Made by a program: the position numbers and the translations under genes. A model generated the notes under the pieces. It was not told the origin of the DNA, ran no database searches, and worked only from the letters and a program-made list of their open reading frames with translations. From an uncultured Desulfobacteraceae bacterium (GTDB lineage: Bacteria > Desulfobacterota > Desulfobacteria > Desulfobacterales > UBA2156), in NCBI GenBank assembly GCA_964596535.1, contig CAZQUR010000001.1, forward strand, positions 26,574 to 90,573: a DNA stretch of 64,000 nucleotides. The letters run 5' to 3'. Below, piece by piece: positions 10,112 through 42,669 of the stretch (its first letter is position 1; each line of letters opens with the position of its first letter).

Positions 10112-10211
10112 ATCCAGATCCTTTCTACTGATCCTACGGGAAAACCCGGAATTTCCTTTATATCCCGCCCCTTGAGTCGGGGCAAGGAAAAAAGGGGGAC
10201 CCCCTAATGCC

Positions 10212-11456
10212 CTATGGACGGAATTTTTTGAGAACCAGGCAGGCGTTGGTCCCGCCGAAGCCGAAGGAGTTGGTCATGGCGTACTCGACGGCTTTTTTAC
10301 GGGCCGTGTTGGGGACGTAGTCGAGGTCGCATTCCTCTCCGGGGTTTTCAAAGTTGATGGTGGGGGGAAGGATGTCCTGGTGCAGGGTCAGGGCCGTAAA
10401 GACGGTTTCGACACCCCCTGCGCCGCCCAAAAGGTGCCCGGTCATGGATTTGGTGGAGCTCACGGCAAGGGTTCGGACATGATCCTTGAATACGGTCTTG
10501 ATGGCCCGGGTTTCGTACAAGTCGTTGAGGGGTGTGGAGGTCCCGTGGGCATTGATATATTCCACCGCTCCGGGAGCGATACCGGCATCTTCAATGGCGG
10601 CGGCCATGCAGCGGGCCATCCCTTCCCCGTCCGGGGAAGGCGCACTGATGTGAAAGGCGTCCCCGCTCATTCCGTATCCCACCACTTCGGCGTAGATGTG
10701 CGCCCCGCGCTTTTGCGCGCTTTCCAGGCTTTCGAAGATCAAAATGCCGGCACCTTCTCCGATGACGAATCCATCCCGGTCCCTGTCAAAGGGCCTGGAG
10801 GCTTTTTCGGGCGCGTCGTTCCGGGTGGAAAGGGCTTTCATGGCGTTGAAACCGGCCACGGAGGTGGGGGTGACGACCGACTCCACGCCCCCGGTGATCA
10901 TGGCCTCGGCCCTCCCGCTTTGAATGATCTTGAAGGCCTCTCCGGCGGCGTGGGTCCCGGCGGCGCAGGCGGTGGCCATGGAGGCATTGGGTCCTTTGGC
11001 CCCGAACAGGATGGAAATCATGCCGGCGGCCATGTTCCCGATCATCATGGGAATGAAAAAGGGGCTCACCCGTTTCGGGCCTTTGTGCTCGATGGTGCGG
11101 GTCGTTTCTTCCAGAAACGAAAGTCCTCCCAGGCCGCAACCCGTGAACACCCCGATCCGGAGGGCGTTTTCGCCGTTGACGGTTAAGCCCGAATCTTCCA
11201 TGGCCATCCGGCTGGCGGCCACGGCATAGGCGATGAAAGGGGTGGCTCGGTTGGCGTCCTTTGCAGGCATGAAATCGGCGGGGTTGAAATCTTTGACTTC
11301 CCCTGCGATCTTTGTGGCATAAGAGGCGGCGTCGAACCGTGTGATGGGCCCGATACCGGACTTTCCGGCACAAAGTGTGTTCCAACTCTCCGACACCCCC
11401 ACACCCAGGGGCGTCACCAGCCCCATGCCGGTGATCACGACCCGTTTTATGCTCAA
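10212..11456 (-). CDS. fabF: beta-ketoacyl-ACP synthase II
   Basis: The TTG at 11456 follows AAGGAGG by 5 nt and gives (M)SIKRVVITGMGLVTPLG. The ORF-track start at 11537 would abut the acpP stop. The active-site region ATACAAGTHA and the C-terminal SFGFGGTNA are present. Confidence 0.93.
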   Translation of the reverse strand: MSIKRVVITGMGLVTPLGVGVSESWNTLCAGKSGIGPITRFDAASYATKIAGEVKDFNPADFMPAKDANRATPFIAYAVAASRMAMEDSGLTVNGENALRIGVFTGCGLGGLSFLEETTRTIEHKGPKRVSPFFIPMMIGNMAAGMISILFGAKGPNASMATACAAGTHAAGEAFKIIQSGRAEAMITGGVESVVTPTSVAGFNAMKALSTRNDAPEKASRPFDRDRDGFVIGEGAGILIFESLESAQKRGAHIYAEVVGYGMSGDAFHISAPSPDGEGMARCMAAAIEDAGIAPGAVEYINAHGTSTPLNDLYETRAIKTVFKDHVRTLAVSSTKSMTGHLLGGAGGVETVFTALTLHQDILPPTINFENPGEECDLDYVPNTARKKAVEYAMTNSFGFGGTNACLVLKKFRP

Positions 11457-11536
11457 GATTTCCTCCTTTTGACAGTTATGATCGGGCATGCACGCCCGGC
11501 AAAAAAATTCGCGGCATTCCGATGGATGCCGGTGCA

Positions 11537-11767
11537 TCAGGAATGCTTGGCGATATACTCCAGGACGTCTTTTACGGTGACGAGCTTTTCCGCTTCTTCG
11601 TCAGAAATTTCGATGTCGAATTCTTCTTCCATGGACATGATGAGTTCCACCAGATCCAGGGAATCGGCGCCCAGATCATCCACGAAGGACGCCTCCGGCA
11701 CGATGTCGTTGATATCCACGCTCAGTTTTTCCGCAATGATCTTCTTGACTTTGTCCTCAAGTGACAT
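11537..11767 (-). CDS. acpP: acyl carrier protein
   Basis: 76 aa with the [20 protein letters not shown] phosphopantetheine attachment motif. Confidence 0.95.
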
Positions 11768-11820: not shown

Positions 11821-12585
11821 TTACATATACATGCCGCCGCTGACATGGATGACCTGGCCGGTGATATAGGTCGCCTGTTCGGATGCCAGAAACGCCACGA
11901 CGTGCGCCACGTCTTCCGGTTGCCCGGCACGACCCAGGGGAATTTGGGCCATCATCTCCGTTCTCACTTTTTCGGAAAGCACGGCGGTCATGTCCGTCTC
12001 GATGAATCCCGGGGCCACCGCGTTTACGGTGACACCCCGCTGGGCGAACTCTCGGGCCGCGGTCTTGGTCAGCCCGATGATCCCGGCCTTGGAAGCCACA
12101 TAATTGGCCTGGCCCGGGTTCCCGATGACCCCAACGATGGAAGCGATGTTGATGATGCGCCCGGATCGTTGGTTTACCATGGCGCGGCCCCCAAACCGGG
12201 TGCAGTGAAACGCTCCCTTCAAATTGACGTTCATCACGGCGTCCCAGTCCGTTTCGGTCATCCGCATGAGCAGTTTGTCCCGGGTGATCCCGGCGTTGTT
12301 GACAAGAACGTCGATGCGGCCGGCCTCCTGTATGACCGTGTCAAAGAACGCCTTTACCGAGTCCTCCGACGCCACATTGACGCTTTGGCTTTTCGCCCAT
12401 CCGCCGGCCCCGTTGACGAGGGTTTCGGTTTTTTCCGCATGGGCCTGTTCTCCCTGCGGATCGCCGGGGTTGAAGTAATTAAAATAGATTCGGGTGTCCG
12501 GAGCGGCAAATTCAAGACAGATGGCCCGGCCGATGCCCCGGGATCCGCCGGTAACCACTACCACGCGCGTTTCATCCGCTTTCAT
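11821..12585 (-). CDS. fabG: 3-oxoacyl-ACP reductase
   Basis: 254 aa SDR with VVTGGSRGIGRAI, NNAGI and YVASKAG. Its ATG overlaps the stop of the upstream acyl-CoA dehydrogenase gene (ATGA at 12582-12585). Confidence 0.9.
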   Translation of the reverse strand: MKADETRVVVVTGGSRGIGRAICLEFAAPDTRIYFNYFNPGDPQGEQAHAEKTETLVNGAGGWAKSQSVNVASEDSVKAFFDTVIQEAGRIDVLVNNAGITRDKLLMRMTETDWDAVMNVNLKGAFHCTRFGGRAMVNQRSGRIINIASIVGVIGNPGQANYVASKAGIIGLTKTAAREFAQRGVTVNAVAPGFIETDMTAVLSEKVRTEMMAQIPLGRAGQPEDVAHVVAFLASEQATYITGQVIHVSGGMYM

Positions 12586-14258
12586 GATCCCCTCTCGAAG
12601 ATAAAATTCGCCGCCCGATCCATGTCGGCCAGGAGCTGTTCATAGCCGGCTTTAAGGGAGGCAAAGGCGATGCGTTCCAGGAAGGAAAAAGCGTCTTTCG
12701 ATTCGAAAAGACCGCACCCCATCACGATCTTCGCGGCGTTTTCCGCTACGGTCTGTGCCGTTTCCCGGGCGAAGATCCGGCAAAAAACATTGATTTTTTC
12801 GGATTCAGGGAGGCGGTTTTCCGTCAGGCGCCGGGCCTTTTTCACGAAACCGGCCGCGATTTCCACCGCCGTCATCATGTCGGCAAGGGCGAACATGACG
12901 AACTGCTGCCGTGTCAGCTTGTGGTCGTGGGCCAGGGTGAGGGTCTCATTGAGCGCCCGGACGGCCGTCCCCACCAGGCTTGCCCCCAAATCCGCAAAGT
13001 GTGTTTCGATTTTATCCATCTGGGCGGCCGTATCCGCGTAAAAGGCACCTTTGGTTTTTCGGGACTTTTTCCATCGAAAGGTGCTGATGATGTTTTGCTG
13101 GATCTCGCTGGTGCCTTCATAAATGCAGGTGATTTTCACGTCCCGTTTGATCTTTTCCACCATGAATTCCCGGATATATCCGTATCCTCCCAGGGCCTGC
13201 ATGGCGTCGTCGGCGGCCCTGTTGGCGGCTTCGGTGGCGAAATATTTGGCGATGGCGCCTTCCACTTGAAGGTCTTCCCCGGTTTCATCGAGCCGTTTGG
13301 CCGTTTCCTCGAGATAGGCGGCCGCGGCTTCCATGTGCACGGCATGGGGGACGACGAGCTTGTGGGTATACCCCTGCTTTTCGGAAAGGGGAGACCCGAA
13401 CTGGACCCGCTCCTTGGCATAAGGGATAACGAAGTCGAGGGCGGCTTCTCCGGCGCCCAGGGCCATGGCCGCCACCATCAGGCGTGTGTATCCGAAGACC
13501 GCATTGGCTTGCTTGAGGCCGACCCCCGGAATATCGCCGATGAGGTTTTCCGCCGGAACAAAGACATCGGTGAAGGTCAACGGCGAGGTGTTGGAGGCGC
13601 GGATGCCGTGTTTTTCTTCCCCTTTTCCCTGTATAAAACCTTGGGTCCCTTTTTCCACGATGAAAAAGGAGGGACCTTCCGGCGCCCGGGCCAGGACCGT
13701 GATGAAATCGGCATACCCGCCGGTGGAGATAAACTGCTTGTTCCCATTGATACGGTAACCGATGATTTTCCCGGATGGGTCCGCCACCGGATCGGCCTTG
13801 GTTTTCAGCGCGGCCAGGTTGCTTCCGGCCTCCGGTTCCGTGACGGCATAGGCGACCAGGGCGTTTCCCTCCGCGATGGCGCCCAGCCATTTCTTCTTTT
13901 GGGCCTCGGTGCCGCCGACTCTTAACGGGTCCGAGCCCAGTTGAATGGCAAAAAAGGCCGTGGCCACCCCGAGACAGATCTTGGCCATTTCCCGGGTGAT
14001 CTCGCAGCAGTCCATGGCGCCGCCCCCCATGCCGCCGTAAGCTTCCGGAAGGAACAACAGCTGTAAGCCGATTTCGGGGCCCAGCATTTGACGGATGATC
14101 CCTTCCGGAAAGGACTCGTTTTTATCCAGTTCGAGGATCGTTTCCGGGGTCAAAAGCCGGGTTTTCAGCTGTCGCACCGTCTCGACGACCATCTGCCGGG
14201 TTTCCGGATCCAGACCCTCGGGGGCGGCTTTTTGGGGGGCGGAAGATAACGTTTCCAT
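12582..14258 (-). CDS. acyl-CoA dehydrogenase family protein with ~150-aa C-terminal extension (VLCAD-like architecture)
   Basis: 558 aa with AYAVTEPEAGSNLAALKT, GNKQFISTGG and the catalytic-base region CIYEGTSEIQQNII, followed by an extra helical C-terminal region. It starts 22 nt after the rpmF stop. Confidence 0.85.
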   Translation of the reverse strand: METLSSAPQKAAPEGLDPETRQMVVETVRQLKTRLLTPETILELDKNESFPEGIIRQMLGPEIGLQLLFLPEAYGGMGGGAMDCCEITREMAKICLGVATAFFAIQLGSDPLRVGGTEAQKKKWLGAIAEGNALVAYAVTEPEAGSNLAALKTKADPVADPSGKIIGYRINGNKQFISTGGYADFITVLARAPEGPSFFIVEKGTQGFIQGKGEEKHGIRASNTSPLTFTDVFVPAENLIGDIPGVGLKQANAVFGYTRLMVAAMALGAGEAALDFVIPYAKERVQFGSPLSEKQGYTHKLVVPHAVHMEAAAAYLEETAKRLDETGEDLQVEGAIAKYFATEAANRAADDAMQALGGYGYIREFMVEKIKRDVKITCIYEGTSEIQQNIISTFRWKKSRKTKGAFYADTAAQMDKIETHFADLGASLVGTAVRALNETLTLAHDHKLTRQQFVMFALADMMTAVEIAAGFVKKARRLTENRLPESEKINVFCRIFARETAQTVAENAAKIVMGCGLFESKDAFSFLERIAFASLKAGYEQLLADMDRAANFIFERGS

Positions 14259-14280
14259 CGTTTAAAAATTTTCCTTGGGG

Positions 14281-14460
14281 TTATTCTTCGGTTTTGACCA
14301 CTGTGCGGCCTTTATACGCGCCGCAGTGGGGACACGCCCGGTGCGGCGGCCTGGCCTCCCCGCATTGGGGGCATGGTGAAAGGTTGGGAAGGGGGGTCTT
14401 GTAGTGCGCCCGCCGCATGTCACGTTTCGATTTGGATTTCTTGCGTTTTGGAAGTGGCAT
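14281..14460 (-). CDS. rpmF: 50S ribosomal protein L32
   Basis: Not in the ORF track (59 aa). Translation is MPLPKRKKSKSKRDMRRAHYKTPLPNLSPCPQCGEARPPHRACPHCGAYKGRTVVKTEE, with GGAG 8 nt upstream of the ATG. Confidence 0.93.
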   Translation of the reverse strand: MPLPKRKKSKSKRDMRRAHYKTPLPNLSPCPQCGEARPPHRACPHCGAYKGRTVVKTEE

Positions 14461-14925: not shown

Positions 14926-16350
14926 ATGATTATCACGCGATTTCCACCCAGTCCCACCGGTCACCTCCACATGGGGGGCGCCCGCACGGCCCTGTTCAAC
15001 TGGTTGTATGCCCGGCATATGAACGGAAAATTCATTTTACGGATCGAAGATACGGATACGGCGCGGTCCACCCCGGAATTTGTGGAATCCATCCTGGAGT
15101 CCCTCCGGTGGCTGGGCATTGACTGGGACGAGGGGCCTTATTTTCAGTCCCGGCGGTTTTCCATCTACCGGGAATACATACAAAAGCTCCTGGATTCCGG
15201 TCAGGCCTATTATTGTGATTGTCGGCCCGAGCGGCTCGAAGCGATCCGAAAAAGCGCCATGGCGTCCGGTGGAAAGCCCAAATATGACGGAAAATGCCGT
15301 GACCGGGGGCTGAAGGCGTCCCAAGATACCGTGGTCCGATTCAAGACGCCCCTCGTCGGTGCCACGGTTTTAAACGATGCCGTCAAAGGCAGCATCGTCT
15401 TTGACAACACCGAGTTGGATGATTTTATCATCGTCCGGAAAGACGAAACCCCCACCTATAATTTCGTGGTGGTGGTGGACGACGTCACCATGGGGATCAA
15501 CGTGATCCTCCGGGGGGACGATCATGTCATGAACACCCCCAAACAGATCCTGATCTACAAGGCCCTGGGTGCAAAACTCCCCGTATTCGCCCACGTGCCC
15601 ATGGTGCTGGGTCATGATCGTTCCCGGCTGAGCAAGCGGCACGGTGCCCTGTCGGTTTCGGCTTACCGGGACATGGGCTACCTTCCCGACGCCCTCATCA
15701 ATTACCTGGTCCGCCTGGGGTGGTCCTACGGGGATCAGGAAATCTTCACCCGGGAGGAACTCATCGAAAAGTTCTCCATCGACAGTCTCGGGAAGTCCCC
15801 GGGCGTTTTTAACCCGGAAAAGCTCTTGGCGGTCAATGCGGAGCACATCAAGCGCACCCCTGACCGGGCTCTCGCCAGAGCGCTCCGGCCGTTTTTTGAA
15901 CAACAAGGCCTTTCGGTGAATGACGGCCCGAACCTTGAAGCCGTCGTTTCCACCCTGAAGGAACGGAGCAAGACACTGATGGAGATGGCCGACAACGGGC
16001 GGTTTTATTTTACGGAAACCGTGGATTACGAAGAAGCGGCAGCAGAAAAATTTCTCACCGCCGAATCGGCGCCGGTCCTCCGCCGGGTGGAACAGCAACT
16101 TGAGGCGTCGCGGGATTTCGGGGAAAAGACGCTGGAAGAGGCTTTCCGCGCCGTCATGGAAGAAACCGGGCGGAAACTAGGAAAGATCGCCCAACCCGTC
16201 CGGGTGGCCCTCACGGGAAAGACGGCGAGTCCCGGCATTTTCGAAATCCTGCATGTGCTGGGCAAGGCCCGCGCCGTCGATCGATTGAAACGTGCCGTTG
16301 CATTCATCGAAGAGCGATCCTCCGGATTTGCCGAGACAGAATCGACTTGA
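14926..16350 (+). CDS. gltX: glutamate--tRNA ligase
   Basis: 474 aa with RFPPSPTGHLHMGGARTALFNWLYAR (HIGH region) and LSKRHG (KMSKS-like). Confidence 0.95.
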   Translation: MIITRFPPSPTGHLHMGGARTALFNWLYARHMNGKFILRIEDTDTARSTPEFVESILESLRWLGIDWDEGPYFQSRRFSIYREYIQKLLDSGQAYYCDCRPERLEAIRKSAMASGGKPKYDGKCRDRGLKASQDTVVRFKTPLVGATVLNDAVKGSIVFDNTELDDFIIVRKDETPTYNFVVVVDDVTMGINVILRGDDHVMNTPKQILIYKALGAKLPVFAHVPMVLGHDRSRLSKRHGALSVSAYRDMGYLPDALINYLVRLGWSYGDQEIFTREELIEKFSIDSLGKSPGVFNPEKLLAVNAEHIKRTPDRALARALRPFFEQQGLSVNDGPNLEAVVSTLKERSKTLMEMADNGRFYFTETVDYEEAAAEKFLTAESAPVLRRVEQQLEASRDFGEKTLEEAFRAVMEETGRKLGKIAQPVRVALTGKTASPGIFEILHVLGKARAVDRLKRAVAFIEERSSGFAETEST

Positions 16351-16390
16351 CGGCTGCCGGCAAGGTGTATTAAAATAAACACATACGTAC

Positions 16391-16464
16391 TGGGGGATCG
16401 TCTAACGGCAGGACGACGGGTTCTGGCCCCGTTAATCCAGGTTCGAATCCTGGTCCCTCAGCCA
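16391..16464 (+). tRNA. tRNA-Gln (anticodon CUG), CCA encoded
   Basis: A 74-nt cloverleaf folded by hand. The acceptor is UGGGGGA/UCCCUCA, the D stem GUCU/GGAC, the anticodon stem ACGGG/CCCGU with loop UUCUGGC, and the T arm CCAGG-UUCGAAU-CCUGG. The discriminator is G followed by CCA. Confidence 0.9.
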
Positions 16465-16596
16465 ATTTTTCCTGCCGGATTGTTTCCGCTTTTTTTGTTG
16501 CGATTGACTTCCCTCCCGTTTTCCCATAGAGATGGCCCATGATTTTGTTCGGCACAAACTCCTACGGAAAGTGAATTCAAGGAGGGAGGAACCGGC

Positions 16597-18297
16597 ATGG
16601 CGTCGGTTGAATTGAAGCCCGCATCGAATTTCATTCGAAACATCATTGCGCAAGACCAAGAAACCGGAAAATGGGACAGCCGCGTGCAGACCCGTTTTCC
16701 GCCCGAACCCAACGGGTATCTCCATATCGGGCACGCCAAGTCCATCTGTATCAACTTCGGCCTGGCCGCCGAGTTCAAAGGAAGCTGCAATCTCCGGTTC
16801 GATGATACGAATCCCACCAAGGAAGAGCATGAGTACGTGGAGGCCATCAAGGCCGACGTGCGGTGGCTCGGCTTTGACTGGGAGGAGCGGGAGTTTTATG
16901 CCTCGGATTACTTCGACACCCTGTATAAATATGCCGTGGATCTCATCGAAAAAGGCAAGGCCTATGTGGACAGCTTGAGCGCCGAGGAAATCCGGGCGCA
17001 TCGGGGGACCCTCACGGAGCCCGGCAGGGAAAGCCCCTACCGGAACCGGACCGTGGCCGAAAACCGCGATTTGTTTGAACGCATGCACAACGGTGATTTC
17101 CCGGCGGGGGCCCACGTGCTCCGGGCCAAAATCGACATGGGGTCTCCCAATTTGAATATGCGGGATCCGGTCATGTACCGGATCCTTTTCGCTTCACACC
17201 ACCGCACCGGAGACAAATGGTGCATTTATCCCACCTACGATTTCGCCCACGGCCAGTGTGATTCCATCGAAGGGGTCACCCATTCCATCTGCACCCTGGA
17301 ATTCGAAGATCACCGGCCCCTGTACGACTGGTTTCTCGACGTCCTGGAGATCCATCATCCCCGGCAGATCGAATTCGCCCGGCTCAACCTCACCCGGACC
17401 GTGTTGAGCAAGCGGAAGCTCGTCCGCCTGGTGGAGGAAGGGTATGTGACGGGATGGGACGATCCCCGCATGCCCACCCTCTCGGGGCTCCGGCGCCGGG
17501 GATACACCCCGCGGGCCATCCGCAACTTCTGTGAGCGGATCGGTGTGGCCCGCCGCGACAGCACCGTGGACATGGCCCTTTTGGAATACTGCCTTCGAGA
17601 GGATCTAAACCGCACGGCGCCGCGTGTCATGGCGGTATTGCGGCCCTTGAAAGTGGTCATCGAAAATTATCCGGAAAACCGCACGGAAATGCTTGAGGCC
17701 GTCAACAACCCCGAAGACCCCGGCATGGGGACCCGACAGGTTCCCTTTTCCCGGGAGATCTACATCGAACGAGACGATTTCATGGAAGATCCGCCCAAGA
17801 AATTTTTCCGGCTTTCCCCGGGCCGGGAAGTGAGGCTCCGGTATGCCTATTTCATCACCTGCGTGGGCGTGGTCAAGGATGAAAAAACGGGAGAAGTGCG
17901 GGAAGTCCGGTGCACCTACGATCCGGCCACCCGGGGCGGGGATGCACCCGACGGCCGCAAGGTCAAGGCCACCCTCCATTGGGTGAGCGCCCCCCACGCC
18001 TTCGCGGGCGACGTGCGTCTTTACGGTGATCTTCTAAAGGATCTGCCGGAAACGGAAGAAGAAAAGGATCCGCTGGATTTCAAGGACCGGATCAATCCGG
18101 ATTCTCTGTCGGTTCTTTCCGACTGCAAGCTGGAACCGGGTCTTGCCGACGCCTTGCCGGAAAACCGGTATCAGTTCGAACGACTGGGGTATTTTTTCGT
18201 GGATCCCGTCGATTCCGCACCGAAAGCCCCCGTTTTCAACCGTACCGTCACCCTCCGGGACACCTGGGCCAAGATCCGGAAACAATCCCGGGGATAA
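16597..18297 (+). CDS. glnS: glutamine--tRNA ligase
   Basis: 566 aa with [23 protein letters not shown] and VLSKRKL. GGAGGGAGG lies upstream of the ATG. Confidence 0.95.
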
Positions 18298-19030: not shown

Positions 19031-20155
19031 TCACAACAAAAAGCTCCAGAGGATGCCGGCGCACATGGCGGATCCGATGACGCCGGAGGCATTGCAGGCC
19101 ATGCCGTGCATGAGCAGATAATTGGTGGGGTCCGATTTCAGGCCCGTCAAGTGAACTTCCCGGGCGGATCCGGGGACGGCCGAAACGCCTGCGGCGCCCA
19201 ACAGGGGATTGATCTTTTGTTTCAAGAAAAGATTCATGATCTTGGCGAAAAGGACCCCCGACGCTGTAGCGATGCTGAAGGCAACGGCACCCAGAAAGAA
19301 GATGCCCACGGATTTAGGGGTCAAGAAGACGTCGGCCTGGGTGCTGGCGCCGACGGTGAATCCCAGGAAAATGGTGGCCGTGTCGATGATGGCCGAGCGG
19401 GCGGTCTGGGCCAGGCGGTCCACCACGCCGCTGACCTTCATGAGGTTCCCGAAGAAGAAGGGCCCTAGAAGCGGGATGGAGGCGGGTGCCAGGAAACAGC
19501 ACAGGATGACCCCCACCACGGGAAAAATCAACTGTTCTTTCCGGGAGACCTCCCGGGTTTCGGGCATGTGGATGCGCCGCTCTTCTTTGGTGGTCAAAAG
19601 GCGCATGATGGGGGGCTGGATGATGGGGATCAACGCCATGTAGGAATAGGCCGCGATGGCGACCGGACCGATGAGATGCGGGGCGAGCTTGGCCGTTAAA
19701 AAGATGGAGGTGGGTCCGTCGGCCCCCCCGATAATGGCGATGGCACCGGCTTCCTGGGGCAGGAATCCCAGGGCCAGGGCCGAAAGGAGCGTGAAATAAA
19801 TCCCCATCTGGGCTGCGGCGCCCAGGAGCATGAGTTTGGGGGATGCCAGCAGGGAGGAAAAATCCGTCATGGCACCGAGCCCCAAAAAGACGATGGACGG
19901 ATAAAGTCCCGAGGTGACGCCGAAATAGAGATAGTGGAGCACGCTGTTGGGTTCATAGATGCCCAAGCCGAACCCTTTGAAAAACGGGATGTTTCCCACG
20001 ATGATGCCGAAGCCGATGGGGAGCAGCAGGAGCGGTTCATATTTCTTGGCGATGGAAAGGAAAATAAAGGTGCACCCCACCAGGATCATGACGATGTGGC
20101 GGTAATCGGCCAAAAAGTAGCCGGTGTTGGATAAAAACTGAAGTAAAAGCGTCAT
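19031..20155 (-). CDS. Na+-translocating decarboxylase beta subunit family (OadB/GcdB/MmdB-like)
   Basis: 374-aa polytopic membrane protein. [40 protein letters not shown] and [10 protein letters not shown] match the family as I know it. Confidence 0.85.
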
Positions 20156-20274
20156 AATGGTTTCTTCCTAAATGTTCTTTCGTCTTTTTGACGTGCCGTT
20201 TCGATGTGTGGGAGGCAGGTTATCCGGACGGGACGAGTCCAATGACGCGTGGCGGAACAAGGCGAGATTCCATG

Positions 20275-20688
20275 CTATTTCTTCCATGAAAAAAGGCCGT
20301 CTCCGGCCGGTACAAGGATCTCTCGTTCCCTGAAGGTGCGGATCATCAGGTGGGGTGCGGGCCATCCCCTGTCCTTCAACACGTTGAAAAGGGCCTTGAT
20401 CTCAAAGGATTCCCCCAAAGACGCCGCTTCCAGGCTGCATCGGGACGCGGCTTCTTGAAGGTCGTCCAGGGGAAAATCGAAGGGCTTGAAAGGTTTTGCG
20501 GGCACGTCTCCCGGCGGGGGTTCCACGATCGGGGGTTCTTCCGGCCGCTTTTCAAATAATCCGGCCACCCGATGCAATTGAGAGATGACCAAAGACAAGA
20601 TCGTCAGTCCCGAAACGACGATGAGGGCGCCGGCAAGGGCCATGGCCCATCCATTGTAATGGGATATTGCTTCGAAACCGTACACCAC
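20275..20688 (-). CDS. OadG-like small membrane subunit with Pro-rich linker and unknown ~70-aa C-terminal domain
   Basis: 137 aa with a single N-terminal TM (WAMALAGALIVVSGLTILSLVI), followed by EEPPIVEPPPGDVPAKPFKP as in the gamma subunits of Na+-decarboxylases. The C-terminal domain is unrecognised. Confidence 0.45.
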   Translation of the reverse strand: MVYGFEAISHYNGWAMALAGALIVVSGLTILSLVISQLHRVAGLFEKRPEEPPIVEPPPGDVPAKPFKPFDFPLDDLQEAASRCSLEAASLGESFEIKALFNVLKDRGWPAPHLMIRTFREREILVPAGDGLFSWKK

Positions 20689-23261: not shown

Positions 23262-23382
23262 AACCCAATCCATCCGGTAACCCGGAGTGGATTCAACCGC
23301 TTTTCCGGATCCATGGCACCGCAGGGGGCCGCCTTCAACAGGTCAGATCGATCCTGTAACGCGTCGCGATTGGAGATCTGTC

Positions 23383-26300
23383 ATGCCCGGCAAGAACCCG
23401 CTTCATTCATTGCGATTTTTCAGGCCCCGGGGGAAAAAATTCGGCTGCAGGGAAGACAATGGCGCCGACGCCTGGACGGAAACACGCTGCGGCCAACGGG
23501 AATGGGAACAACTTTATCGACGCCGCTGGCAGTACGATAAGAAGGTCCGTTCCACCCACGGGGTCAACTGCACCGGATCCTGTTCCTGGGATGTCCATGT
23601 CAAAGACGGCATCCTCGTATGGGAAACCCAGGCCACGGATTACCCGGGATGCGGGCCGGATTCCCCTCACCACGAGCCCCGGGGGTGCCCCCGGGGCGCC
23701 ACCTATTCGTGGTACACCTACAGCCCGGTGCGTCTCAAATATCCGCTGATCCGATCCAGCCTGATGGAAATGTGGCAGGAAGCTCTGGACAAAGAGGGCG
23801 ATCCGGTGGCGGCCTGGAAGACCATCGTCGAGGATAACGGCAAGCGCCGCCGCTTTCACCAAGAGCGCGGCAAAGGCGGCTTCGTCCGGGCGACCTGGGA
23901 GCAGGCGGCCGTCATGATCGCCGCAGCCTTGATCCACACCATCAAAACCCATGGCCCGGACCGCATCTTCGGCTTTACCCCCATTCCGGCCATGTCCATG
24001 GTGTGCTATGCATCGGGTGCCCGTTTCCTGTCGCTCATCGGCGGCACCATGCTCAGTTTTTATGACTGGTATTGCGATTTGCCGCCGGCCTCTCCGCAGA
24101 TCTGGGGGGAACAGACCGATGTCCCGGAAAGCGCCGACTGGTATGAAGCCACCTACTTCATCGTCTGGGGGACCAATCTTCCCATGACCCGCACACCCGA
24201 TGCCCATTTTTACACGGAAGCCCGCTACCGGGGGGCAAGGGTAACCGCGGTGGCTCCCGATTATGCCGAGTACGTCAAGTTCGCGGACACCTGGCTCCCG
24301 GCCCGGGCGGGGACGGATGCGGCCCTGGCCATGTCCATGACCCATGTCGTTTTCAAGGAGTTTTACATCCATCGGCCGGTGCCTTATTTTATGGAATACG
24401 CCAAGGCGTTCACGGATCTGCCCTTTGTCGTGCTTCTCGATCCCATTGAAAAAAGCTGTTTGCCCGGCCGGTTCCTGCGCGCTTCGGACCTGGGTCTGGA
24501 GGTCGATCACGCCGAGTGGAAGACGGTGATCTATGACGCATCGACGCGCGGTTTTCAGGTGCCCAACGGGAGCATCGGGTTCCGGTGGAGCGAAGAAGGG
24601 CGGTGGAACCTGAAATTGGAAGAGAACGGGCATCGTATCGATCCGATGCTCGGTTTTGCATCCGAACCGGACGGTTGGGAGACAGTGGCATTCCCGGTTT
24701 TCGAATCCGGCGGTGCTGCGTCAAAGACCGGGATCGTCCCGGTGAAAACCCTTCAAACACCCTCGGGTGCCCGAAAGGTGACCACTGTTTTTGATCTCAT
24801 GGCGGCCCAACTGGGGGTTTTGCCGAAGAACGCACCGTTTGTCCCCCCCGATTATCCGAAAGATTACAGCGATCCCAAGCCCTATACGCCCGCATGGCAG
24901 GCGTCCGTCACCGGGGTCCCGGCCGAGGCGGCGATACGCGTGGCGCGTGAATTTGCCGAAAACGCGGAAAAGACCCGGGGGAAGTCCATGATCTTTCTCG
25001 GGGCCGGTACCAACCACTGGTACCACAGCGACATGATTTATCGCAGCATCATCAATCTGACGACGTTGTGCGGATGCCAGGGGGTCAACGGCGGCGGATG
25101 GGCCCATTACGTGGGACAGGAAAAGGTTCGACCCCAGGCGGCCTGGTCCCAGGTGGCCTTCGGCCTGGATTGGCGGCGTCCCCCCCGCCAGCAAAACGGC
25201 ACCTCCTTTTATTACTTTGCCAGCGACCAGTGGCGTTACGACGGCCTTCGCCCGGCCGACATCCTCTCGCCGCTATCCAACACGGCGCCGGCGGCGCACA
25301 TGGCCGACTACAACGCCGTCGCCGCGCGCCTGGGGTGGCTTCCGTCGTATCCCCAGTTCAACCAAAATCCAATGGAATTGATCCAGGAAGCCGTTTCCAA
25401 CGGAGCATCGTCGGATGAAGAGATCATTGCATACGTGGTGGAAAAGCTCAAAAAAGGGGACTTGCATTTCGCCGTTGAAGATCCCGACAACCCTGTCAAT
25501 TTCCCCCGGGTGCTTTTCTTATGGCGGGCCAATCTCCTGGGCGCCAGTTCCAAAGGGCACGAATACTTCCTCAAGCACCTCCTCGGTACAGACAATGCGG
25601 TCCTGAACACGGACAATCCCCTGCGCCCCCGGGAGATTCGATGGCGCGACCCGGCCCCGGAAGGGAAGCTGGATCTGTTGGTGACCCTGGAACTGCGCAT
25701 GTCCACCAGCGCCATGTACGCCGATATCGCCCTCCCCGCCGCCGGTTGGTATGAAATGCACGACCTGAACACCACCGATATGCATCCCTTTATTCACCCG
25801 TTCAATCCGGCCATCGATCCGCCCTGGGAAACCCGGACCAACTGGGAGCAGTTTAAAGCCATCGCGAAAAAATTTTCCGAGTTGGCGGCAACACACCTGG
25901 GAGAAATGCCGGATCTGGTCGCCACGCCTTTGATGCACGACACCCCGGGCGAAATCGCCCAGCCCCAGGTTAAGGACTGGCGCAAAGGGGAATGCGACCC
26001 CGTACCCGGAAAAACACTCCCCCATCTGACCGTGGTGAAGCGGGATTATCCCAATACCTATAAGATGATGACGGCAGTGGGGCCCTTGGCCGCCTCCACG
26101 GGGATCGGCTCCAAAGGGATTTCATGGAAAGCCCCGGAAGAATACGAGGCCTTGAAGGCGATTCTGGGAACCGTTTCGGAACCCGGCGTCACCCAGGGAA
26201 TGCCGGTCATGGAAACCGCCAAGCAGGCGGCGGAAACCATCCTGATGCTGGCCCCGGAAACCAACGGCGGGACCGCGGTCAAGGCCTGGACAGGGCTTGA

Positions 26301-27081
26301 AGAAAAGACCGGTCTATCCCTTCGACACTTGAGCCTCCCCCGGCAGGGGGAGCGCTTTCGCTTTGACGACCTGACGGCCCAGCCCCGAAAAATCATCACT
26401 TCCCCGATCTGGAGCGGCATTGAATCCGACCGGCGGCGCTATTCCCCCTTTGTCATCAACATCGAAGAGAAAGTCCCTTTCCGCACCTTGACCGGAAGGA
26501 CCCAGTTCTATCAGGATCACCCCTGGATGCGGGATTTCGGAGAGCATCTCCCCTTGTACCGGCCGCCCCTGGACATGATCCCCCTGGAGCCGCCCCGCGG
26601 GAAACGGGAACCCGGAAAGGAGATTATCCTCAACTATCTGACACCCCATTCCAAGTGGTCCATTCACAGCACCTATTCGGATGTGCTGACCATGCTGACA
26701 CTTTTTCGCGGCGGGGAGGCCATCTGGATCAATGACGAGGATGCGGAAAAGATCGACGTCAAAGACAACGATTGGCTGGAGTGCTTCAACGCCAACGGCG
26801 TGGTGATGGCCAAAGCCGTGGTAAGTCCGCGCATACCCACCGGAAAGGCGTTCATGTACCATGCCCAGGAGCGGTTGATCCACACCCCAGGGTCGAAGCT
26901 TTCCGGCCAGCGGGGCGGCACCCACAACAGTGTCACCCGGATCACGGTCAAGCCCACCCACATGATCGGCGGGTACGCCCAGCTCAGCTACGGGTTCAAT
27001 TATTACGGGCCCATCGGCGCCCAGCGGGACGAAATGATCATAGTGCGCAAGGCCGGAGAGGTGGACTGGTATGAAGATTAA
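23383..27081 (+). CDS. narG: respiratory nitrate reductase alpha subunit (cytoplasm-facing NarG type)
   Basis: 1232 aa from ATG 23383 (GGAG 8 nt upstream). It is colinear with E. coli NarG as I recall it:
- LRFFRPRGKKF (vestigial twin-Arg)
- WQYDKKVRSTHGVNCTGSCSWDVHVKDGILVWETQATDYP (His/Cys3 FS0)
- HEPRGCPRGATYSWY
- YDWYCDLPPASPQIWGEQTDVPESADWY
- GGWAHYVGQEK
- HNSVTRITVKPTHMIGGYAQLSYGFNYYGP. Confidence 0.95.
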   Translation: MPGKNPLHSLRFFRPRGKKFGCREDNGADAWTETRCGQREWEQLYRRRWQYDKKVRSTHGVNCTGSCSWDVHVKDGILVWETQATDYPGCGPDSPHHEPRGCPRGATYSWYTYSPVRLKYPLIRSSLMEMWQEALDKEGDPVAAWKTIVEDNGKRRRFHQERGKGGFVRATWEQAAVMIAAALIHTIKTHGPDRIFGFTPIPAMSMVCYASGARFLSLIGGTMLSFYDWYCDLPPASPQIWGEQTDVPESADWYEATYFIVWGTNLPMTRTPDAHFYTEARYRGARVTAVAPDYAEYVKFADTWLPARAGTDAALAMSMTHVVFKEFYIHRPVPYFMEYAKAFTDLPFVVLLDPIEKSCLPGRFLRASDLGLEVDHAEWKTVIYDASTRGFQVPNGSIGFRWSEEGRWNLKLEENGHRIDPMLGFASEPDGWETVAFPVFESGGAASKTGIVPVKTLQTPSGARKVTTVFDLMAAQLGVLPKNAPFVPPDYPKDYSDPKPYTPAWQASVTGVPAEAAIRVAREFAENAEKTRGKSMIFLGAGTNHWYHSDMIYRSIINLTTLCGCQGVNGGGWAHYVGQEKVRPQAAWSQVAFGLDWRRPPRQQNGTSFYYFASDQWRYDGLRPADILSPLSNTAPAAHMADYNAVAARLGWLPSYPQFNQNPMELIQEAVSNGASSDEEIIAYVVEKLKKGDLHFAVEDPDNPVNFPRVLFLWRANLLGASSKGHEYFLKHLLGTDNAVLNTDNPLRPREIRWRDPAPEGKLDLLVTLELRMSTSAMYADIALPAAGWYEMHDLNTTDMHPFIHPFNPAIDPPWETRTNWEQFKAIAKKFSELAATHLGEMPDLVATPLMHDTPGEIAQPQVKDWRKGECDPVPGKTLPHLTVVKRDYPNTYKMMTAVGPLAASTGIGSKGISWKAPEEYEALKAILGTVSEPGVTQGMPVMETAKQAAETILMLAPETNGGTAVKAWTGLEEKTGLSLRHLSLPRQGERFRFDDLTAQPRKIITSPIWSGIESDRRRYSPFVINIEEKVPFRTLTGRTQFYQDHPWMRDFGEHLPLYRPPLDMIPLEPPRGKREPGKEIILNYLTPHSKWSIHSTYSDVLTMLTLFRGGEAIWINDEDAEKIDVKDNDWLECFNANGVVMAKAVVSPRIPTGKAFMYHAQERLIHTPGSKLSGQRGGTHNSVTRITVKPTHMIGGYAQLSYGFNYYGPIGAQRDEMIIVRKAGEVDWYED

Positions 27082-28492
27082 AATCCAAACCGCCATGGTC
27101 TTGAATCTCGACAAGTGCATCGGCTGCCATACCTGCAGCATCCCTTGCAAGAATGTATGGACCAACCGCCGGGGCGCCGAATACATGTGGTTCAACAACG
27201 TGGAGTGCAAACCGGGAATCGGGTATCCCAAGAAATGGGAGAACCAAAAGATTCACCGGGGAGGATGGCGGCGCAAGGGGGACCGCCTTCAACTTGCGGC
27301 CGGAGGGCGACTCCACAAAGGGATCAACATCTTCCACAATCCGGATCTTCCGACCCTCGACGACTATTACGAGCCGTGGCATTACGATTATGAAAGGCTG
27401 ATCAAGAGCCCGAAGCGCCGCCATCAGCCGTCCATCCGGCCACTGTCCGATTTGACGGGCCGGCCCATGGACCTGGAATGGGGACCCAACTGGGAGGACG
27501 ACCTGGCAGGCCTGAAGACAACGGGTGCCGGGGATGTCAATTTCAAAGGCCTGGAGATGAAAATCTATCTGCACTTCCGCCGTGTTTTCATGTTCTGGCT
27601 GCCACGGCTGTGCGAACACTGCCTCAACCCGGCCTGTGTGGCCTCGTGCCCGTCCGGCGCCTTGTATAAGCGACACGAAGACGGCATCGTCTTGGTGGAC
27701 CAGGAGCGCTGCCGGGGATGGCGGTACTGCGTCTCCGGCTGCCCGTACAAAAAGGTCTATTTCAACTGGAATACGGGCCGGGCCGAAAAATGTCTCTTTT
27801 GTTACCCGCGCGTGGAGGCCGGATTGACTCCACTCTGCGCCCATAGTTGCGTCGGCCGCATCCGATACGTGGGGATCCTTTTTTACGATGCCGATCGAAT
27901 TCTGGAGGCGGCATCGGCCTCCTCGGACAGGGCAGTTTATCCAGCCCATCTGGAGATTCTGCTCGACCCCCGCGATGCGACGGTCCAAAGCGCCGCCGAA
28001 TCCCAGGGGATCCCCGGCTCTGTCATGGCGGCGGCCGTGCGGTCACCGGTCTACCGGTTGATTAAAGCGTGGCGGTTGGCCCTTCCGCTGCACCCGGAAT
28101 TCCGGACGCTTCCCATGGTGTGGTACATTCCGCCCCTGAGTCCCATGAGCGATGCGACGGCCGCGTTCCACGAACCGGATTTGATCGGCCGCCTCCGCAT
28201 TCCCGTCGTCTATCTGGCGAATCTCCTCACGGCCGGAGACGAGCAACCGATCCGAAACGCCCTGAACCGGCTGTTGGCCCTCCGGGAATATATGCGGGCC
28301 AAACGGGTTGAAGACCGCATCGATCAACAGGCCCTTGACCGGGGCGGCATTTCCGAAGAAACCGCCGAACAGATGCTCCGCCTTCTGGCCTTGGCCCGCC
28401 TGGAGGAACGCTTTGTCCTGCCGGCCGGGCCGCCCGTAGACACCGATGTCGCGACCCAACAGGGTGTTTGCGGCTTCGGCGAGGCCGGGTGA
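27071..28492 (+). CDS. narH: respiratory nitrate reductase beta subunit
   Basis: MKIKIQTAMVLNLDKCIGCHTCSIPCKNVWTNRRGAEYMWFNNVECKPG, plus further Cys clusters (CEHCLNPACVASCPSGA, CRGWRYCVSGCPYKK, CYPRVE). It overlaps the narG end by 11 nt. Confidence 0.95.
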   Translation: MKIKIQTAMVLNLDKCIGCHTCSIPCKNVWTNRRGAEYMWFNNVECKPGIGYPKKWENQKIHRGGWRRKGDRLQLAAGGRLHKGINIFHNPDLPTLDDYYEPWHYDYERLIKSPKRRHQPSIRPLSDLTGRPMDLEWGPNWEDDLAGLKTTGAGDVNFKGLEMKIYLHFRRVFMFWLPRLCEHCLNPACVASCPSGALYKRHEDGIVLVDQERCRGWRYCVSGCPYKKVYFNWNTGRAEKCLFCYPRVEAGLTPLCAHSCVGRIRYVGILFYDADRILEAASASSDRAVYPAHLEILLDPRDATVQSAAESQGIPGSVMAAAVRSPVYRLIKAWRLALPLHPEFRTLPMVWYIPPLSPMSDATAAFHEPDLIGRLRIPVVYLANLLTAGDEQPIRNALNRLLALREYMRAKRVEDRIDQQALDRGGISEETAEQMLRLLALARLEERFVLPAGPPVDTDVATQQGVCGFGEAG

Positions 28493-36657: not shown

Positions 36658-37647
36658 ATGAAATCGGTCTGTATTGTGGGAACCGGGTCCCATCTCCCTC
36701 CGAAGGTATTGAGCAACAAGGACCTGGAACAAATGGGCCTGGATACGGACGATGAATGGATCGTGCAGCGCACCGGCATCCGGGAGCGACGGGTCGCCGC
36801 CCCGGAGGTGTGCACCTCCGACTTGGCGCTGGAGGCCTCCAGGAAGGCGTTTGAGATGGCGGGGATCACCGCCAGGGACGTGGGCCTCATCATCGTGGCC
36901 ACCATCACCCCGGACACCTGTTGCCCGGCCGCCGCCAACTGGCTTCAGGCCAAGCTCGACGCGCCCCAGGCCGTTACCTTCGATATCACGGCGGCCTGCT
37001 CGGGATTCATCTTCGGCCTGAACGCCGCCGAACAGTATCTGAAGACCGGCGCCAGCCGCACCGTTCTCGTGGCGGCCTCCGAAGTTATGAGCCGCACCGT
37101 GAACTGGAGGGACCGTTCTTCCTGCATCCTGTGGGGGGACGGCGCCGGTGCCGCAGTCCTCACCCTTGGCGAAGCGGGGCATCGCTTGTATTCTACGCAC
37201 ATCCACACGGACGGCGCCAATGGACAAGACCTGCTGCTTCCCGGAGGCGGTTCCCGGACCACCCCCATTTCCCACGAGAGCGTGGACAAGGGCCTGCACT
37301 ACCTGACCATGATCGAGGCCAACTTGAGTTTCCGGGTGGCGGTGCGGCATTTCATCGGCGCCATTCAGGAGGCGGCCGCGCATAACGATATTCCGGTCTC
37401 GGCCATCGACTGGTTCATTCCCCACCAGGCGAACCTGCGCATGTTCCAGGCCGTGGCCAAGAGCCTGAATATCCCCATGGAGCGCTTCTATCTCACCCTG
37501 GAAAAATACGGAAACATTTCCTCGGCGTCGTGTGCCATCGCCCTGGACGAGGCGGTGCGTGACGGCAGCATCCGCCCGGGGGATTGGGTGTGTCTCCCGG
37601 TTTTCGGGGGCGGCCTGACCTGGGGTTCCGCCCTTATCCGCTGGTAA
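36658..37647 (+). CDS. fabH: beta-ketoacyl-ACP synthase III
   Basis: 329 aa with DEWIVQRTGIRERR, ACSGFIFGL (active-site Cys), HQANLRM and GNISSAS. It starts 4 nt after the peptidase stop. Confidence 0.9.
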   Translation: MKSVCIVGTGSHLPPKVLSNKDLEQMGLDTDDEWIVQRTGIRERRVAAPEVCTSDLALEASRKAFEMAGITARDVGLIIVATITPDTCCPAAANWLQAKLDAPQAVTFDITAACSGFIFGLNAAEQYLKTGASRTVLVAASEVMSRTVNWRDRSSCILWGDGAGAAVLTLGEAGHRLYSTHIHTDGANGQDLLLPGGGSRTTPISHESVDKGLHYLTMIEANLSFRVAVRHFIGAIQEAAAHNDIPVSAIDWFIPHQANLRMFQAVAKSLNIPMERFYLTLEKYGNISSASCAIALDEAVRDGSIRPGDWVCLPVFGGGLTWGSALIRW

Positions 37648-40112: not shown

Positions 40113-40211
40113 GTTCGTCTCCTGAGTCGTTATTTACTGGATTCGGCATCGCGCCGGTGCAGTGATTTTAAAAAGCTGTTTCCCTGTTTGATCAACTTTT
40201 TCTAAGCGCTT

Positions 40212-40997
40212 TCAGGCGATGACCACTTCAACGCCCAGCAGATCGAGTTCCCTCTGAAAATCTTCGGGTATGCTTCGATTGGTGACCAATACATCGATCT
40301 GCTTGAGCGGGACGATGGACATCTGGGCCACCAGGCCGAATTTGGTGTGGTTGGCCATGATGATGACCTGCCCGCGGGTGTATTTGATCATGGTGCGCTC
40401 GATCACGGCGATCTCAAAATTGGGGGTGGTCATGCCGGAGCTGAGGCTGAGGGCGTCGGCGCCCAAAAATACTTTTGTGGCATTGACCTGGCGGATCATC
40501 TCCATGGTGAGAAGACCCGAAAGGGATTTGGTTTGCGGGTTATACATTCCCCCTAAAAAGATAATTTCGGCAGTGGTGCCGTCGGCCTCGCTGGTAATGC
40601 CGAGATTATTGGTAAAGACGGTGCACGGCAGGCCGGGTTCCAGATACCGGATAATCAAGGCCGCCGTGGTGCCTGTTCCCAGAAAAACCACCTCGTTGGG
40701 CTCGATCAAGGCGGCGGCCCTCCGGGCGATTTGCTGTTTTTCTTTTAAGTTTTCCTTGATGCTGCTGTTGTAATGGAATTTTCCCGCCACCCGCTCCTGC
40801 CGGAAGACCGCCCCCCCGTGGGTGCGCTCCACCAAGCCCCGGCGCTCCAGGGCATCGAGATCCCGCCGGATCGTCATCTCCGATACGTTCAGCAATTCGC
40901 TGAGACGGGTGCTCCGGACGGTGAATTCGTTTCGTAAAATATCGATGATGCGTTGCTGTCGTTCCGCCGGCATCAGGGAACTCGTTGTTTTGCTCAT
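40212..40997 (-). CDS. DeoR/GlpR-family transcriptional regulator
   Basis: 261 aa with the N-terminal HTH LSELLNVSEMTIRRDLDALE and a C-terminal sugar-phosphate-isomerase-like sensor domain. Confidence 0.85.
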   Translation of the reverse strand: MSKTTSSLMPAERQQRIIDILRNEFTVRSTRLSELLNVSEMTIRRDLDALERRGLVERTHGGAVFRQERVAGKFHYNSSIKENLKEKQQIARRAAALIEPNEVVFLGTGTTAALIIRYLEPGLPCTVFTNNLGITSEADGTTAEIIFLGGMYNPQTKSLSGLLTMEMIRQVNATKVFLGADALSLSSGMTTPNFEIAVIERTMIKYTRGQVIIMANHTKFGLVAQMSIVPLKQIDVLVTNRSIPEDFQRELDLLGVEVVIA

Positions 40998-41054
40998 CGG
41001 CCCTCTTCCTTGAGGTCCCCCGGTTCCGGCGGCAGGGGAAATGAAAACCGGTCG

Positions 41055-41936
41055 TCAATCCATCTGTTGAAGTGCATCATAGGCCTTTTCCAAACGGGAA
41101 AGGTTTTTCCCGGTGTAATGGACATAGTCGAAGTCCAGTGTCGAATACAGTTCCGAGACAATGCTCCAAAGTGTCTCCCGCAGCAAGGAGACACACTTCA
41201 TTACCGCGAAACGGCGGCGCAGTGTATCCGTAACGTGACGCTGGTAGTAGGTCTCCAGGAGATCCTCTTCCTGTTCCAAAGACAGTGCGTTGTTGGAAGA
41301 TAGGTTGGCTAGATCGAAAAGCGCGGTATTATAGCCTGCGTAGTCCCAGTCGAGCAGCCACAGGCGGCTGTTGTCGTGGATGAAATTGGCGGCCAAAAGA
41401 TCATTGTGCCCGAATACCAGGTGGATTTCCCCGATCCGTTTTTCCAGGGTTTCATTCATTTCAAGAAAACGGGGGAGATGCGGCATCATGCGGCTCTTGC
41501 CTTCTTGGGCCGTGTGAATGTAGTTCCGGCACACGTGAAACGGCCAGAAAACCAGCGCCGGTCCTTTGAAATGCTTCGGGATTTGGGTATGGCAGGCCCG
41601 CAGAAGGGAGACGATGGGCGCCAGGTTCTCCTTTTTTTGCACGTCTTCTTCCGAAAAGGGGGTACCGTCGATGTATCGCATGATGAAAAGGCCGTCTTCA
41701 CTGTAGACGATTTCGGGCGAAATGCCGGCGGCATGGGCGGCCCGTGCGGCCGCAATTTCGTTGAACCGCATGACACCGTGGACCGGAATGTCTTTTCCGA
41801 CGCGGACAACAAAGCGTTCCCCCCGGTGATCCACGATAAAATTCGTATTGGTGATCCCGCCGGCCAGGGGCCGGGGATCCACCGGTGCGGACCAAAAATC
41901 CAACCGGGAGATCCTGTCTTTAAAATCCGTGTTCAT
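41055..41936 (-). CDS. choline/ethanolamine-kinase-like phosphotransferase (APH fold)
   Basis: 293 aa with the Brenner/APH motifs VFGHNDLLAANFI and WLLDWDYAGYN. Confidence 0.75.
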   Translation of the reverse strand: MNTDFKDRISRLDFWSAPVDPRPLAGGITNTNFIVDHRGERFVVRVGKDIPVHGVMRFNEIAAARAAHAAGISPEIVYSEDGLFIMRYIDGTPFSEEDVQKKENLAPIVSLLRACHTQIPKHFKGPALVFWPFHVCRNYIHTAQEGKSRMMPHLPRFLEMNETLEKRIGEIHLVFGHNDLLAANFIHDNSRLWLLDWDYAGYNTALFDLANLSSNNALSLEQEEDLLETYYQRHVTDTLRRRFAVMKCVSLLRETLWSIVSELYSTLDFDYVHYTGKNLSRLEKAYDALQQMD

Positions 41937-41948
41937 GGGCTCTCCTTT

Positions 41949-42668: not shown

Positions 42669-42669
42669 C

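Follow-up and report, generated by a model that had tools for sequence, protein, structure and literature searches.

An acyl-CoA dehydrogenase-family gene conserved in the rpmF–fab operon of Desulfobacterales, a candidate flavoprotein-fed enoyl-ACP reductase

Bacterial fatty-acid synthesis is pulled forward by the reduction of enoyl-acyl carrier protein (enoyl-ACP), a step that is also a major target of antibiotics. To our knowledge, enoyl-ACP reductases (ENRs) fall into a handful of families, all of which use NAD(P)H. Members of the acyl-CoA dehydrogenase (ACAD) superfamily are also known to run reductively in anaerobes, as in Bcd–EtfAB, AcrC, CarC and CaiA/FixABCX of Escherichia coli, which are fed by electron-transferring flavoproteins (ETFs). 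Here, we analyze a 64,000-nt stretch of contig CAZQUR010000001.1 from an uncultured Desulfobacteraceae bacterium (the window), in which a 558-aa ACAD-family protein is encoded within the rpmF–fab operon, between the genes for ribosomal protein L32 and the ketoacyl reductase FabG. We propose that this protein is the enoyl-ACP reductase, or one of several, in the type II fatty-acid synthesis (FAS II) of Desulfobacterales.

Several described systems resemble the protein in part. With the reductive ACADs it shares the superfamily and the catalytic Glu, and its best family and PDB matches include these physiological enoyl-CoA reductases (AcrC at 296 bits, Bcd–Etf 5OL2, CarC 6FAH and CaiA-type enzymes) as well as 4L1F; in a sister clade described below, etfB–etfA are directly adjacent to the ACAD gene. 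The known reductive enzymes differ in being ~380-aa, tetrameric, CoA-specific proteins whose genes share fermentation or respiration operons with etf, whereas the 558-aa ACAD carries an extra domain of the very-long-chain acyl-CoA dehydrogenase (VLCAD) type and is encoded in a FAS II operon near acpP with no adjacent etf. An additional C-terminal helical domain of ~160–180 aa also occurs in VLCAD, ACAD9, 3OWA from Bacillus anthracis, 2Z1Q from Thermus thermophilus and FadE/YusJ of Bacillus, but these are beta-oxidation or complex-I-assembly proteins, with only 24–27% full-length identity to the 558-aa protein. FabI and FabL (SDR), FabK (NMO/FMN) and FabV share the reaction proposed here, from trans-2-enoyl-ACP to acyl-ACP, and the FAS II position, and FabK is likewise a flavoprotein. 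These enzymes have no sequence or fold kinship to the ACAD and use NAD(P)H directly, whereas an ACAD has no nicotinamide site and requires ETF or another one-electron carrier; the 558-aa protein would match the known ENR families in function without belonging to them. Carrier-protein-bound thioesters are the substrates of MbtN, FkbI, TcsD, RedW/PigA and AnaB, whose genes adjoin carrier-protein genes as the ACAD gene lies near acpP, and PDB 4IRN appears with such dehydrogenases among the weak matches; these, however, are ~380-aa oxidative tailoring enzymes of secondary metabolism that are not encoded in a core rpmF–fab operon. FabX of Helicobacter pylori, an O2-dependent enzyme with an NMO fold, FMN and a [4Fe-4S] cluster, performs redox ‘backtracking’ in FAS II (PMC8626469). 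The 558-aa protein has an ACAD fold rather than an NMO fold, and FabX is encoded outside the core rpmF–fab operon.

Conservation of the operon and family of the encoded protein

A preliminary description of the locus had given the order rpmF, a 22-nt gap, the 558-aa ACAD gene, an ATGA overlap with fabG, then acpP and fabF, which proved exact, coordinates included, on direct reading and with family models (Table 1). Its statement that the window lacks plsX, fabD and any gene of the FabI/K/L/V type, with fabH 22 kb away, agrees with Pfam scans of essentially all open reading frames (ORFs) of at least 100 aa, which detected no PlsX, FabD, FabZ/A, NMO/FabK or FabV in the window and FabG as its sole SDR. 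No etf genes were found in the window either. A scan from rpmF to fabG, including the 22-nt spacer, revealed no terminator-like site, and the operon probably ends at a predicted hairpin behind fabF. The genes rpiB, glyA and rib lie downstream of fabF, while gltX is divergent and upstream of rpmF.

To place this arrangement in context, homologues were scanned in one genome per species. Relatives were present in 365 species, and the gene neighborhood was read in the best 80 of these 365, all of them Desulfobacterales/Thermodesulfobacteriota assemblies and nearly all metagenome-assembled genomes (MAGs), with ACAD identities of 65–94%. Linkage of orthologues to fab genes, set beforehand as a test, was observed in 80 of the 80 loci, mostly at coupling distances. 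The order (gltX divergent) rpmF–ACAD–fabG–acpP–fabF(–rpiB–glyA) holds in each as far as the contigs reach, with rpmF upstream of the ACAD gene in 72 related loci (median gap of 24 nt), −14 to +4 nt between the ACAD stop and the fabG start in 69 of 80 and acpP as the second gene after the ACAD, within the operon, in all 80. Eight of eight further metagenome loci of the window clade and exact-match Logan contigs contain the same operon. This arrangement is far beyond chance. No plsX, fabD or ENR gene was detected within 10 kb of the operon in the 80 genome loci, and tblastn searches of these and 80 metagenome loci with FabI, PlsX and FabD from E. coli and with FabK and FabV returned only cross-matches to FabG.

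The ACAD gene has diverged at the pace of its neighbors. Measured against the proteins of the window, the ACAD has a median identity of 67.4%, compared to 67.0% for GlyA, 68.6% for FabG, 72.4% for FabF and 64.9% for GltX, and its GC content, overall and at third codon positions (GC3), is in line with that of neighboring genes; locus by locus, ACAD identity did not correlate significantly with that of FabF and FabG. On the basis of matching composition and housekeeping-level identity, the gene is native, old and under housekeeping-level constraint. Recent horizontal transfer was ruled out by the matching GC and GC3 values and the housekeeping-like median divergence. The loci with a conserved ACAD include that of a MAG labelled Desulfobacter. 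An apparent 966-aa ‘fusion’ homologue (P0279) was rejected as a Rosetta-stone fusion, as it reflects an over-extended N-terminal ORF call.

Residues 19–392 of the protein comprise the three Pfam ACAD domains PF02771 (1e-19), PF02770 (3e-20) and PF00441 (4e-46), all above gathering scores, followed by ~165 further residues. Pfam assigned only ACAD domains, with no SDR, NMO or FabV domain, and the protein contains no Cys-cluster motif. In phmmer alignments, Glu381 aligns with the catalytic Glu376 of medium-chain acyl-CoA dehydrogenase (MCAD), and it is at least 90% conserved among 76 homologues. An AlphaFold2 (AF2) model from the 76-sequence alignment reached a pLDDT of 94.9, superseding a first model from 18 sequences with a pLDDT of 68, and places helices at residues 384–553 with pLDDT values above 90. 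Foldseek returned TM scores of at least 0.9, normalized to target, against many ACAD structures; the best full-length matches were human and mouse VLCAD, ACAD9, 3OWA and 2Z1Q (TM 0.77–0.83, 24–27% identity), and the structures aligned over the full length were 7S7G, 2UXW, 8PHE, 3OWA and 2Z1Q. Sequence and predicted fold identify the protein as an ACAD-superfamily member of VLCAD-type architecture, with FAD dependence and activity on acyl thioesters predicted by homology.

The earlier label ‘VLCAD-like’ describes this architecture correctly, but the protein is not an orthologue of VLCAD. Among solved structures, it is closest in sequence to MCAD, short-chain acyl-CoA dehydrogenase (SCAD) and Bcd-type enzymes, with 36–39% identity, compared to 25–26% for VLCAD. 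At the positions of Q95 and E99 at the base of the MCAD pocket, where VLCAD presumably carries Gly residues that deepen the acyl pocket, the 558-aa protein has Ala98 and Phe102 and not Gly/Gly. It also falls below every NCBIfam equivalog cut-off. The best scores were obtained for AcrC (NF042972, 296 versus a cut-off of 640), cyclohexane-carbonyl-CoA dehydrogenase and Bacillus FadE (NF058590, 223 versus 600, aligned over residues 12–513), while the carrier-protein dehydrogenase models gave 43.5 bits for MbtN (cut-off 700), 165 for RedW (650) and 155 for PigA (500). The idea that the C-terminal domain is a docking site for ACP or a partner was abandoned. The extension opens with the basic stretch FRWKKSRKTKG, but the RW..K/R..G junction motif is common to all long ACADs, including those without an ACP link, and the domain itself is nothing more than the additional helical domain that long ACADs of the VLCAD type generally have. 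Neither the domain nor the junction can be considered a special ACP dock because both VLCAD-type folds and an ETF-linked outer clade without ACP linkage (see below) possess the domain.

Relatives next to ER-less megasynthases

A neighbor-joining tree built on the core region separates long ACADs from the ~380-aa ones. The operon arrangement extends to an orphan sister with 46% identity (P0127), whose nearest relatives are the Desulfobacterales ACADs and which is encoded on four contigs in the order rpmF–ACAD–fabG–acpP–fabF, together with a FabF only 59% identical to that of the window.

A further sister clade, with ~50% identity and NCBI names pointing to Holophagales/Thermoanaerobaculia (Acidobacteriota), has a different neighborhood. 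On a 2.3-Mb contig, its ACAD gene lies 17 nt upstream of a gene for a 2946-aa megasynthase with KS, MAT, a second KS/CLF, four ACPs, KR and DH, followed by a single-chain acetyl-CoA carboxylase. No ER domain was detected by Pfam in this megasynthase (locus L093), the sole complete one that was domain-scanned. In a metagenome scan, a KS–MAT–CLF–ACPn–KR–DH megasynthase is present directly downstream of the sister-clade ACAD in 46 of the 48 loci with enough DNA, and a carboxylase in one. Searches of the sister-clade loci by tblastn gave no match to FabK/PfaD, FabV or FabI. Upstream-ORF clustering and Pfam placed EtfB–EtfA immediately upstream of the ACAD in 25 loci, 13 of which also encode a ~700–750-aa CCG and 4Fe-4S oxidoreductase. 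Among the conserved neighbors there is no hydratase, hydroxyacyl-CoA dehydrogenase or thiolase, and across about 170 loci the ACAD gene is accompanied by no other beta-oxidation gene.

The megasynthase corresponds to the ‘Type R’ secondary lipid synthase, a KS–MAT–CLF–ACP–KR system without ER and with a product that is not known, described without mention of an ACAD (Shulse & Allen 2011, PMC3098273). This match, the AdhE-like and WS/DGAT genes that accompany the ACAD in five sister-clade loci and a PPTase neighbor in another relative (L175) would fit an ACP-linked tailoring enzyme for a specialized lipid, such as ether-lipid, branched-chain or wax-ester precursors, instead of bulk synthesis. 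For the Desulfobacterales gene we regard such a function as very improbable; behind rpmF, it shares the canonical FAS II operon position with acpP, fabG and fabF of apparently housekeeping type, and specialized-lipid genes were not seen near the operon.

The extended cluster, (AdhE-like, WS/DGAT,) CCG/4Fe-4S oxidoreductase–EtfB–EtfA–ACAD–megasynthase–carboxylase, was observed at L093:10001–21680 and in L106, L130, L134, L135, L149 and others, which derive from Acidobacteriota-like genomes and from peat and soil metagenomes. Its predicted gene content resembles that of a self-contained, ETF-fed synthase of fatty acids or wax esters.

Carrier, direction and electron donor

The ACAD clade, thus, shows two independent tight associations with ACP-dependent elongation, one with the FAS II core operon and the other with a type-I-like synthase. 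An ACP-bound substrate, as the preliminary description had suggested, would fit these contexts as well as a relative (P0124) beside a pair of acyl-AMP ligase and ACP genes and the PPTase neighbor of L175. Of the three functions that it had offered (flavin-dependent enoyl-ACP reduction, acyl-ACP desaturation or a link to beta-oxidation), the first fits best, given the KS/AT/ACP/KR/DH megasynthases, the ER-less scanned example and the frequently adjacent ETF genes. Because the scanned megasynthase is ER-less and no FabK/PfaD, FabV or FabI match exists in the loci, ER is the sole activity of the elongation cycle that is missing locally. An additional enzyme producing 2-enoyl intermediates would be redundant since the DH domain, or FabZ, already makes them. 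With an enoyl consumer missing, ETF and FeS partners at hand and reductive ACADs among the best matches, an ETF-dependent enoyl-ACP reductase is the most likely assignment. We favor it tentatively, at a little short of an even chance, on the grounds of gene context, conservation and fold; for the Desulfobacterales enzyme, ACP as carrier, the reductive direction and ETF as donor are all inferred.

In the proposed reaction, trans-2-enoyl-ACP supplied by the FAS dehydratase would enter the ACAD active site, where reduced FAD would transfer a hydride to C3 and Glu381 would protonate C2, in reverse of the usual ACAD direction. The flavin would then be re-reduced by EtfAB, which in Desulfobacterales would be encoded elsewhere in the genome since no etf genes adjoin the operon, with the menaquinol pool, by way of a CCG/FeS oxidoreductase, or NADH as the source of electrons for ETF. 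With textbook potentials of about −74 mV for menaquinol and −10 mV for enoyl thioesters, flow through ETF is downhill.

The opposite direction is the core of a second explanation, in which the protein serves the anaerobic synthesis of unsaturated fatty acids as a FabX-like acyl-ACP dehydrogenase that may double as an isomerase. Oxidation of medium-chain acyl-ACP would yield trans-2-enoyl-ACP, Glu381 would then move the double bond to the cis-3 position, and the electrons would pass to ETF/menaquinone and not to O2. The linkage to ACP and fatty-acid synthesis serves this explanation equally, and ACADs are normally oxidative. ACAD-family dehydrogenases acting on carrier proteins exist, as the weak MbtN, RedW and PigA matches recall, and P0124 adjoins an AMP-ligase and ACP pair just as MbtN does. 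FabX itself sets a precedent for an acyl-ACP dehydrogenase in FAS II (PMC8626469), and Desulfobacterium autotrophicum has been reported to lack fabA and fabZ (PMC3098273). We nevertheless consider this explanation distinctly unlikely. Beside a DH-containing, ER-less synthase, a 2,3-dehydrogenase is redundant and a reductase is what is missing; no isomerase-specific feature was identified in the ACAD, and FabX-type enzymes are rare add-ons, whereas the ACAD is universal in its clade and part of a core operon.

A third explanation, which we judge unlikely, is an ordinary acyl-CoA dehydrogenase of beta-oxidation or lipid turnover whose gene would have been fixed at this position in the ancestor of Desulfobacterales for regulation, for example to balance synthesis and degradation in sulfate reducers that oxidize fatty acids. 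Desulfobacterales typically degrade fatty acids, every sequence and fold match of the protein is an acyl-CoA dehydrogenase and the same architecture is found in FadE-type beta-oxidation enzymes of Bacillus (NF058590, 3OWA). In its favor are also the more distant relatives. An outer Elusimicrobiales clade with 34% identity is ETF-linked without ACP context: at L094:7001–10065, a 616-aa long ACAD gene overlaps by 4 nt with a gene for a 405-aa ETF-alpha-domain protein, inside a histidine-utilization-like cluster (FTCD, histidine ammonia-lyase and urocanase). In addition, one of the closer relatives, at L112, lies outside the fab operon. Against an ordinary dehydrogenase stand the absence of any other beta-oxidation gene in about 170 loci and the co-translation with a ribosomal protein gene and fabG, which implies growth-coupled and not substrate-induced expression. 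Lacking hydratase, hydroxyacyl-CoA dehydrogenase and thiolase among its conserved neighbors, the sister-clade cluster is not explained by a beta-oxidation role. The independent, equally tight link to ER-less ACP megasynthases and acetyl-CoA carboxylase and the housekeeping-level conservation across the order, including the Desulfobacter-labelled MAG (L038), argue in the same direction.

Several observations weigh against an ETF-dependent enoyl-ACP reductase. No etf genes adjoin the operon in the 80 Desulfobacterales loci. Motif comparison revealed no signature in the sequence by which ACP use could be told from CoA use, and pI and charge gave no signal between clades. In a clade with 50–59% identity, the ACAD gene lies outside the operon. 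Its member at L112:1558–16350, 55% identical, shows the order mlaE/F/C/A–ACAD–helicase–gltX ... rpmF–plsX–...–fabG, in which the ACAD gene directly follows the mlaE/F/C/A phospholipid-transport operon, 6.5 kb from a canonical fab operon; this may be an intermediate state that preceded entry of the ACAD into the operon. The direction is inferred from context only because the series ACAD–ETF–FeS oxidoreductase is also the oxidative chain of anaerobic beta-oxidation. Finally, only fabA and fabZ were flagged as missing from the ‘incomplete FAS II’ of D. autotrophicum HRM2 (Shulse & Allen 2011, PMC3098273), a weak hint that an ENR homologue of some kind had been detected in that genome. If the lack of fabA and fabZ is general, FAS II of Desulfobacterales would be non-canonical in more than one step.

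A broader proposal, that the ACAD is the sole housekeeping ENR of Desulfobacterales and its sister clade the trans-acting ER of the ER-less Acidobacteriota synthases, together forming a new ETF/menaquinol-fed ENR class beside FabI, FabL, FabK and FabV, is doubtful. Literature searches yielded no description of an ACAD within a fab operon or of an ACAD-type ENR; the only leads in the literature were Shulse & Allen 2011 and the Desulfovibrio ENR DVU2064. Should the enzyme be an ENR, it would be a mechanistically different solution to this reaction, wire membrane-lipid synthesis to the quinone/ETF pool and be insensitive to FabI-directed inhibitors. The energy costing of lipid synthesis in energy-limited anaerobes would change because electrons at the menaquinol/ETF level are spent instead of NAD(P)H, with a bearing on the lipid hydrogen-isotope signatures of sulfate reducers. 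Thousands of genes annotated as ‘acyl-CoA dehydrogenase family’ would then need a corrected label, and such an enzyme would explain how the widespread ER-less KS–MAT–CLF–ACP–KR–DH (‘Type R’) synthases arrive at reduced chains. Even as a dehydrogenase, an ACAD hard-wired in the core fab operon of an entire order would be an unrecognized component of bacterial FAS II.

Feature coordinates and other genes in the window

Table 1 Features of the rpmF–fab operon and of fabH, in window positions
Feature	Position	Strand	Evidence
rpmF (ribosomal protein L32), first operon gene	14281–14460	minus	Pfam L32p PF01783 (9e-24), TIGR01031
rpmF–ACAD spacer, 22 nt, with AAGGA Shine–Dalgarno-like motif	14259–14280	minus	Direct sequence reading
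ACAD-family flavoprotein gene, 558 aa, VLCAD architecture	12582–14258	minus	Pfam N, M and C domains; AF2; Foldseek
Glu381 codon, predicted catalytic base in YEGTSE	13116–13118	minus	Aligned to MCAD Glu376
ACAD C-terminal extension, residues 393–558, all-helical fifth domain	12585–13082	minus	AF2 model, Foldseek superposition
ATGA overlap of ACAD TGA stop and fabG ATG start, translational coupling	12582–12585	minus	Direct sequence reading
fabG (3-oxoacyl-ACP reductase)	11821–12585	minus	TIGR01830, 331 bits versus cut-off 297.75
acpP (acyl carrier protein)	11537–11767	minus	NF002148 and TIGR00517, both above cut-off
fabF (KAS II), last operon gene	10212–11456	minus	TIGR03150, 640 bits
GC-rich hairpin and T-run right after the fabF stop, AGGGGGTCCCCCT TTTTT	10193–10205	minus	Terminator-like, consensus match only
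fabH (KAS III), 22 kb from the operon	36658–37647	plus	Pfam ACP_syn_III and ACP_syn_III_C

At the position of fabF, a 414-aa gene is called in public contigs. A second hairpin with a T-run lies between the acpP stop and the fabF start (11512–11531) and may act as an attenuator that raises acpP expression above that of fabF. Divergent from the operon, gltX, tRNA-Gln(CTG) (16391–16464) and glnS stand in a row at 14926–18297, and the divergent position of gltX is retained in most related loci.

Elsewhere in the window, positions 23287–28492 encode a Nar-type molybdopterin oxidoreductase with a 1264-aa alpha subunit (Nitr_red_alph_N) and a beta subunit (Nitr_red_bet_C), which is unexpected for a Desulfobacterales-type genome; its predicted domains would fit either a nitrate reductase or an anaerobic enzyme of the hydrocarbon/ethylbenzene-dehydrogenase-like kind. 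The region at 37689–46968 contains a gene for an 807-aa fusion of FAD oxidoreductase and GCV_T, resembling dimethylglycine/sarcosine dehydrogenases (an ETF-dependent class), beside a DeoR regulator and a branched-chain-type ABC transporter. At 19031–20688, the beta and gamma subunits of a Na+-translocating decarboxylase of the oxaloacetate/methylmalonyl-CoA type are encoded.

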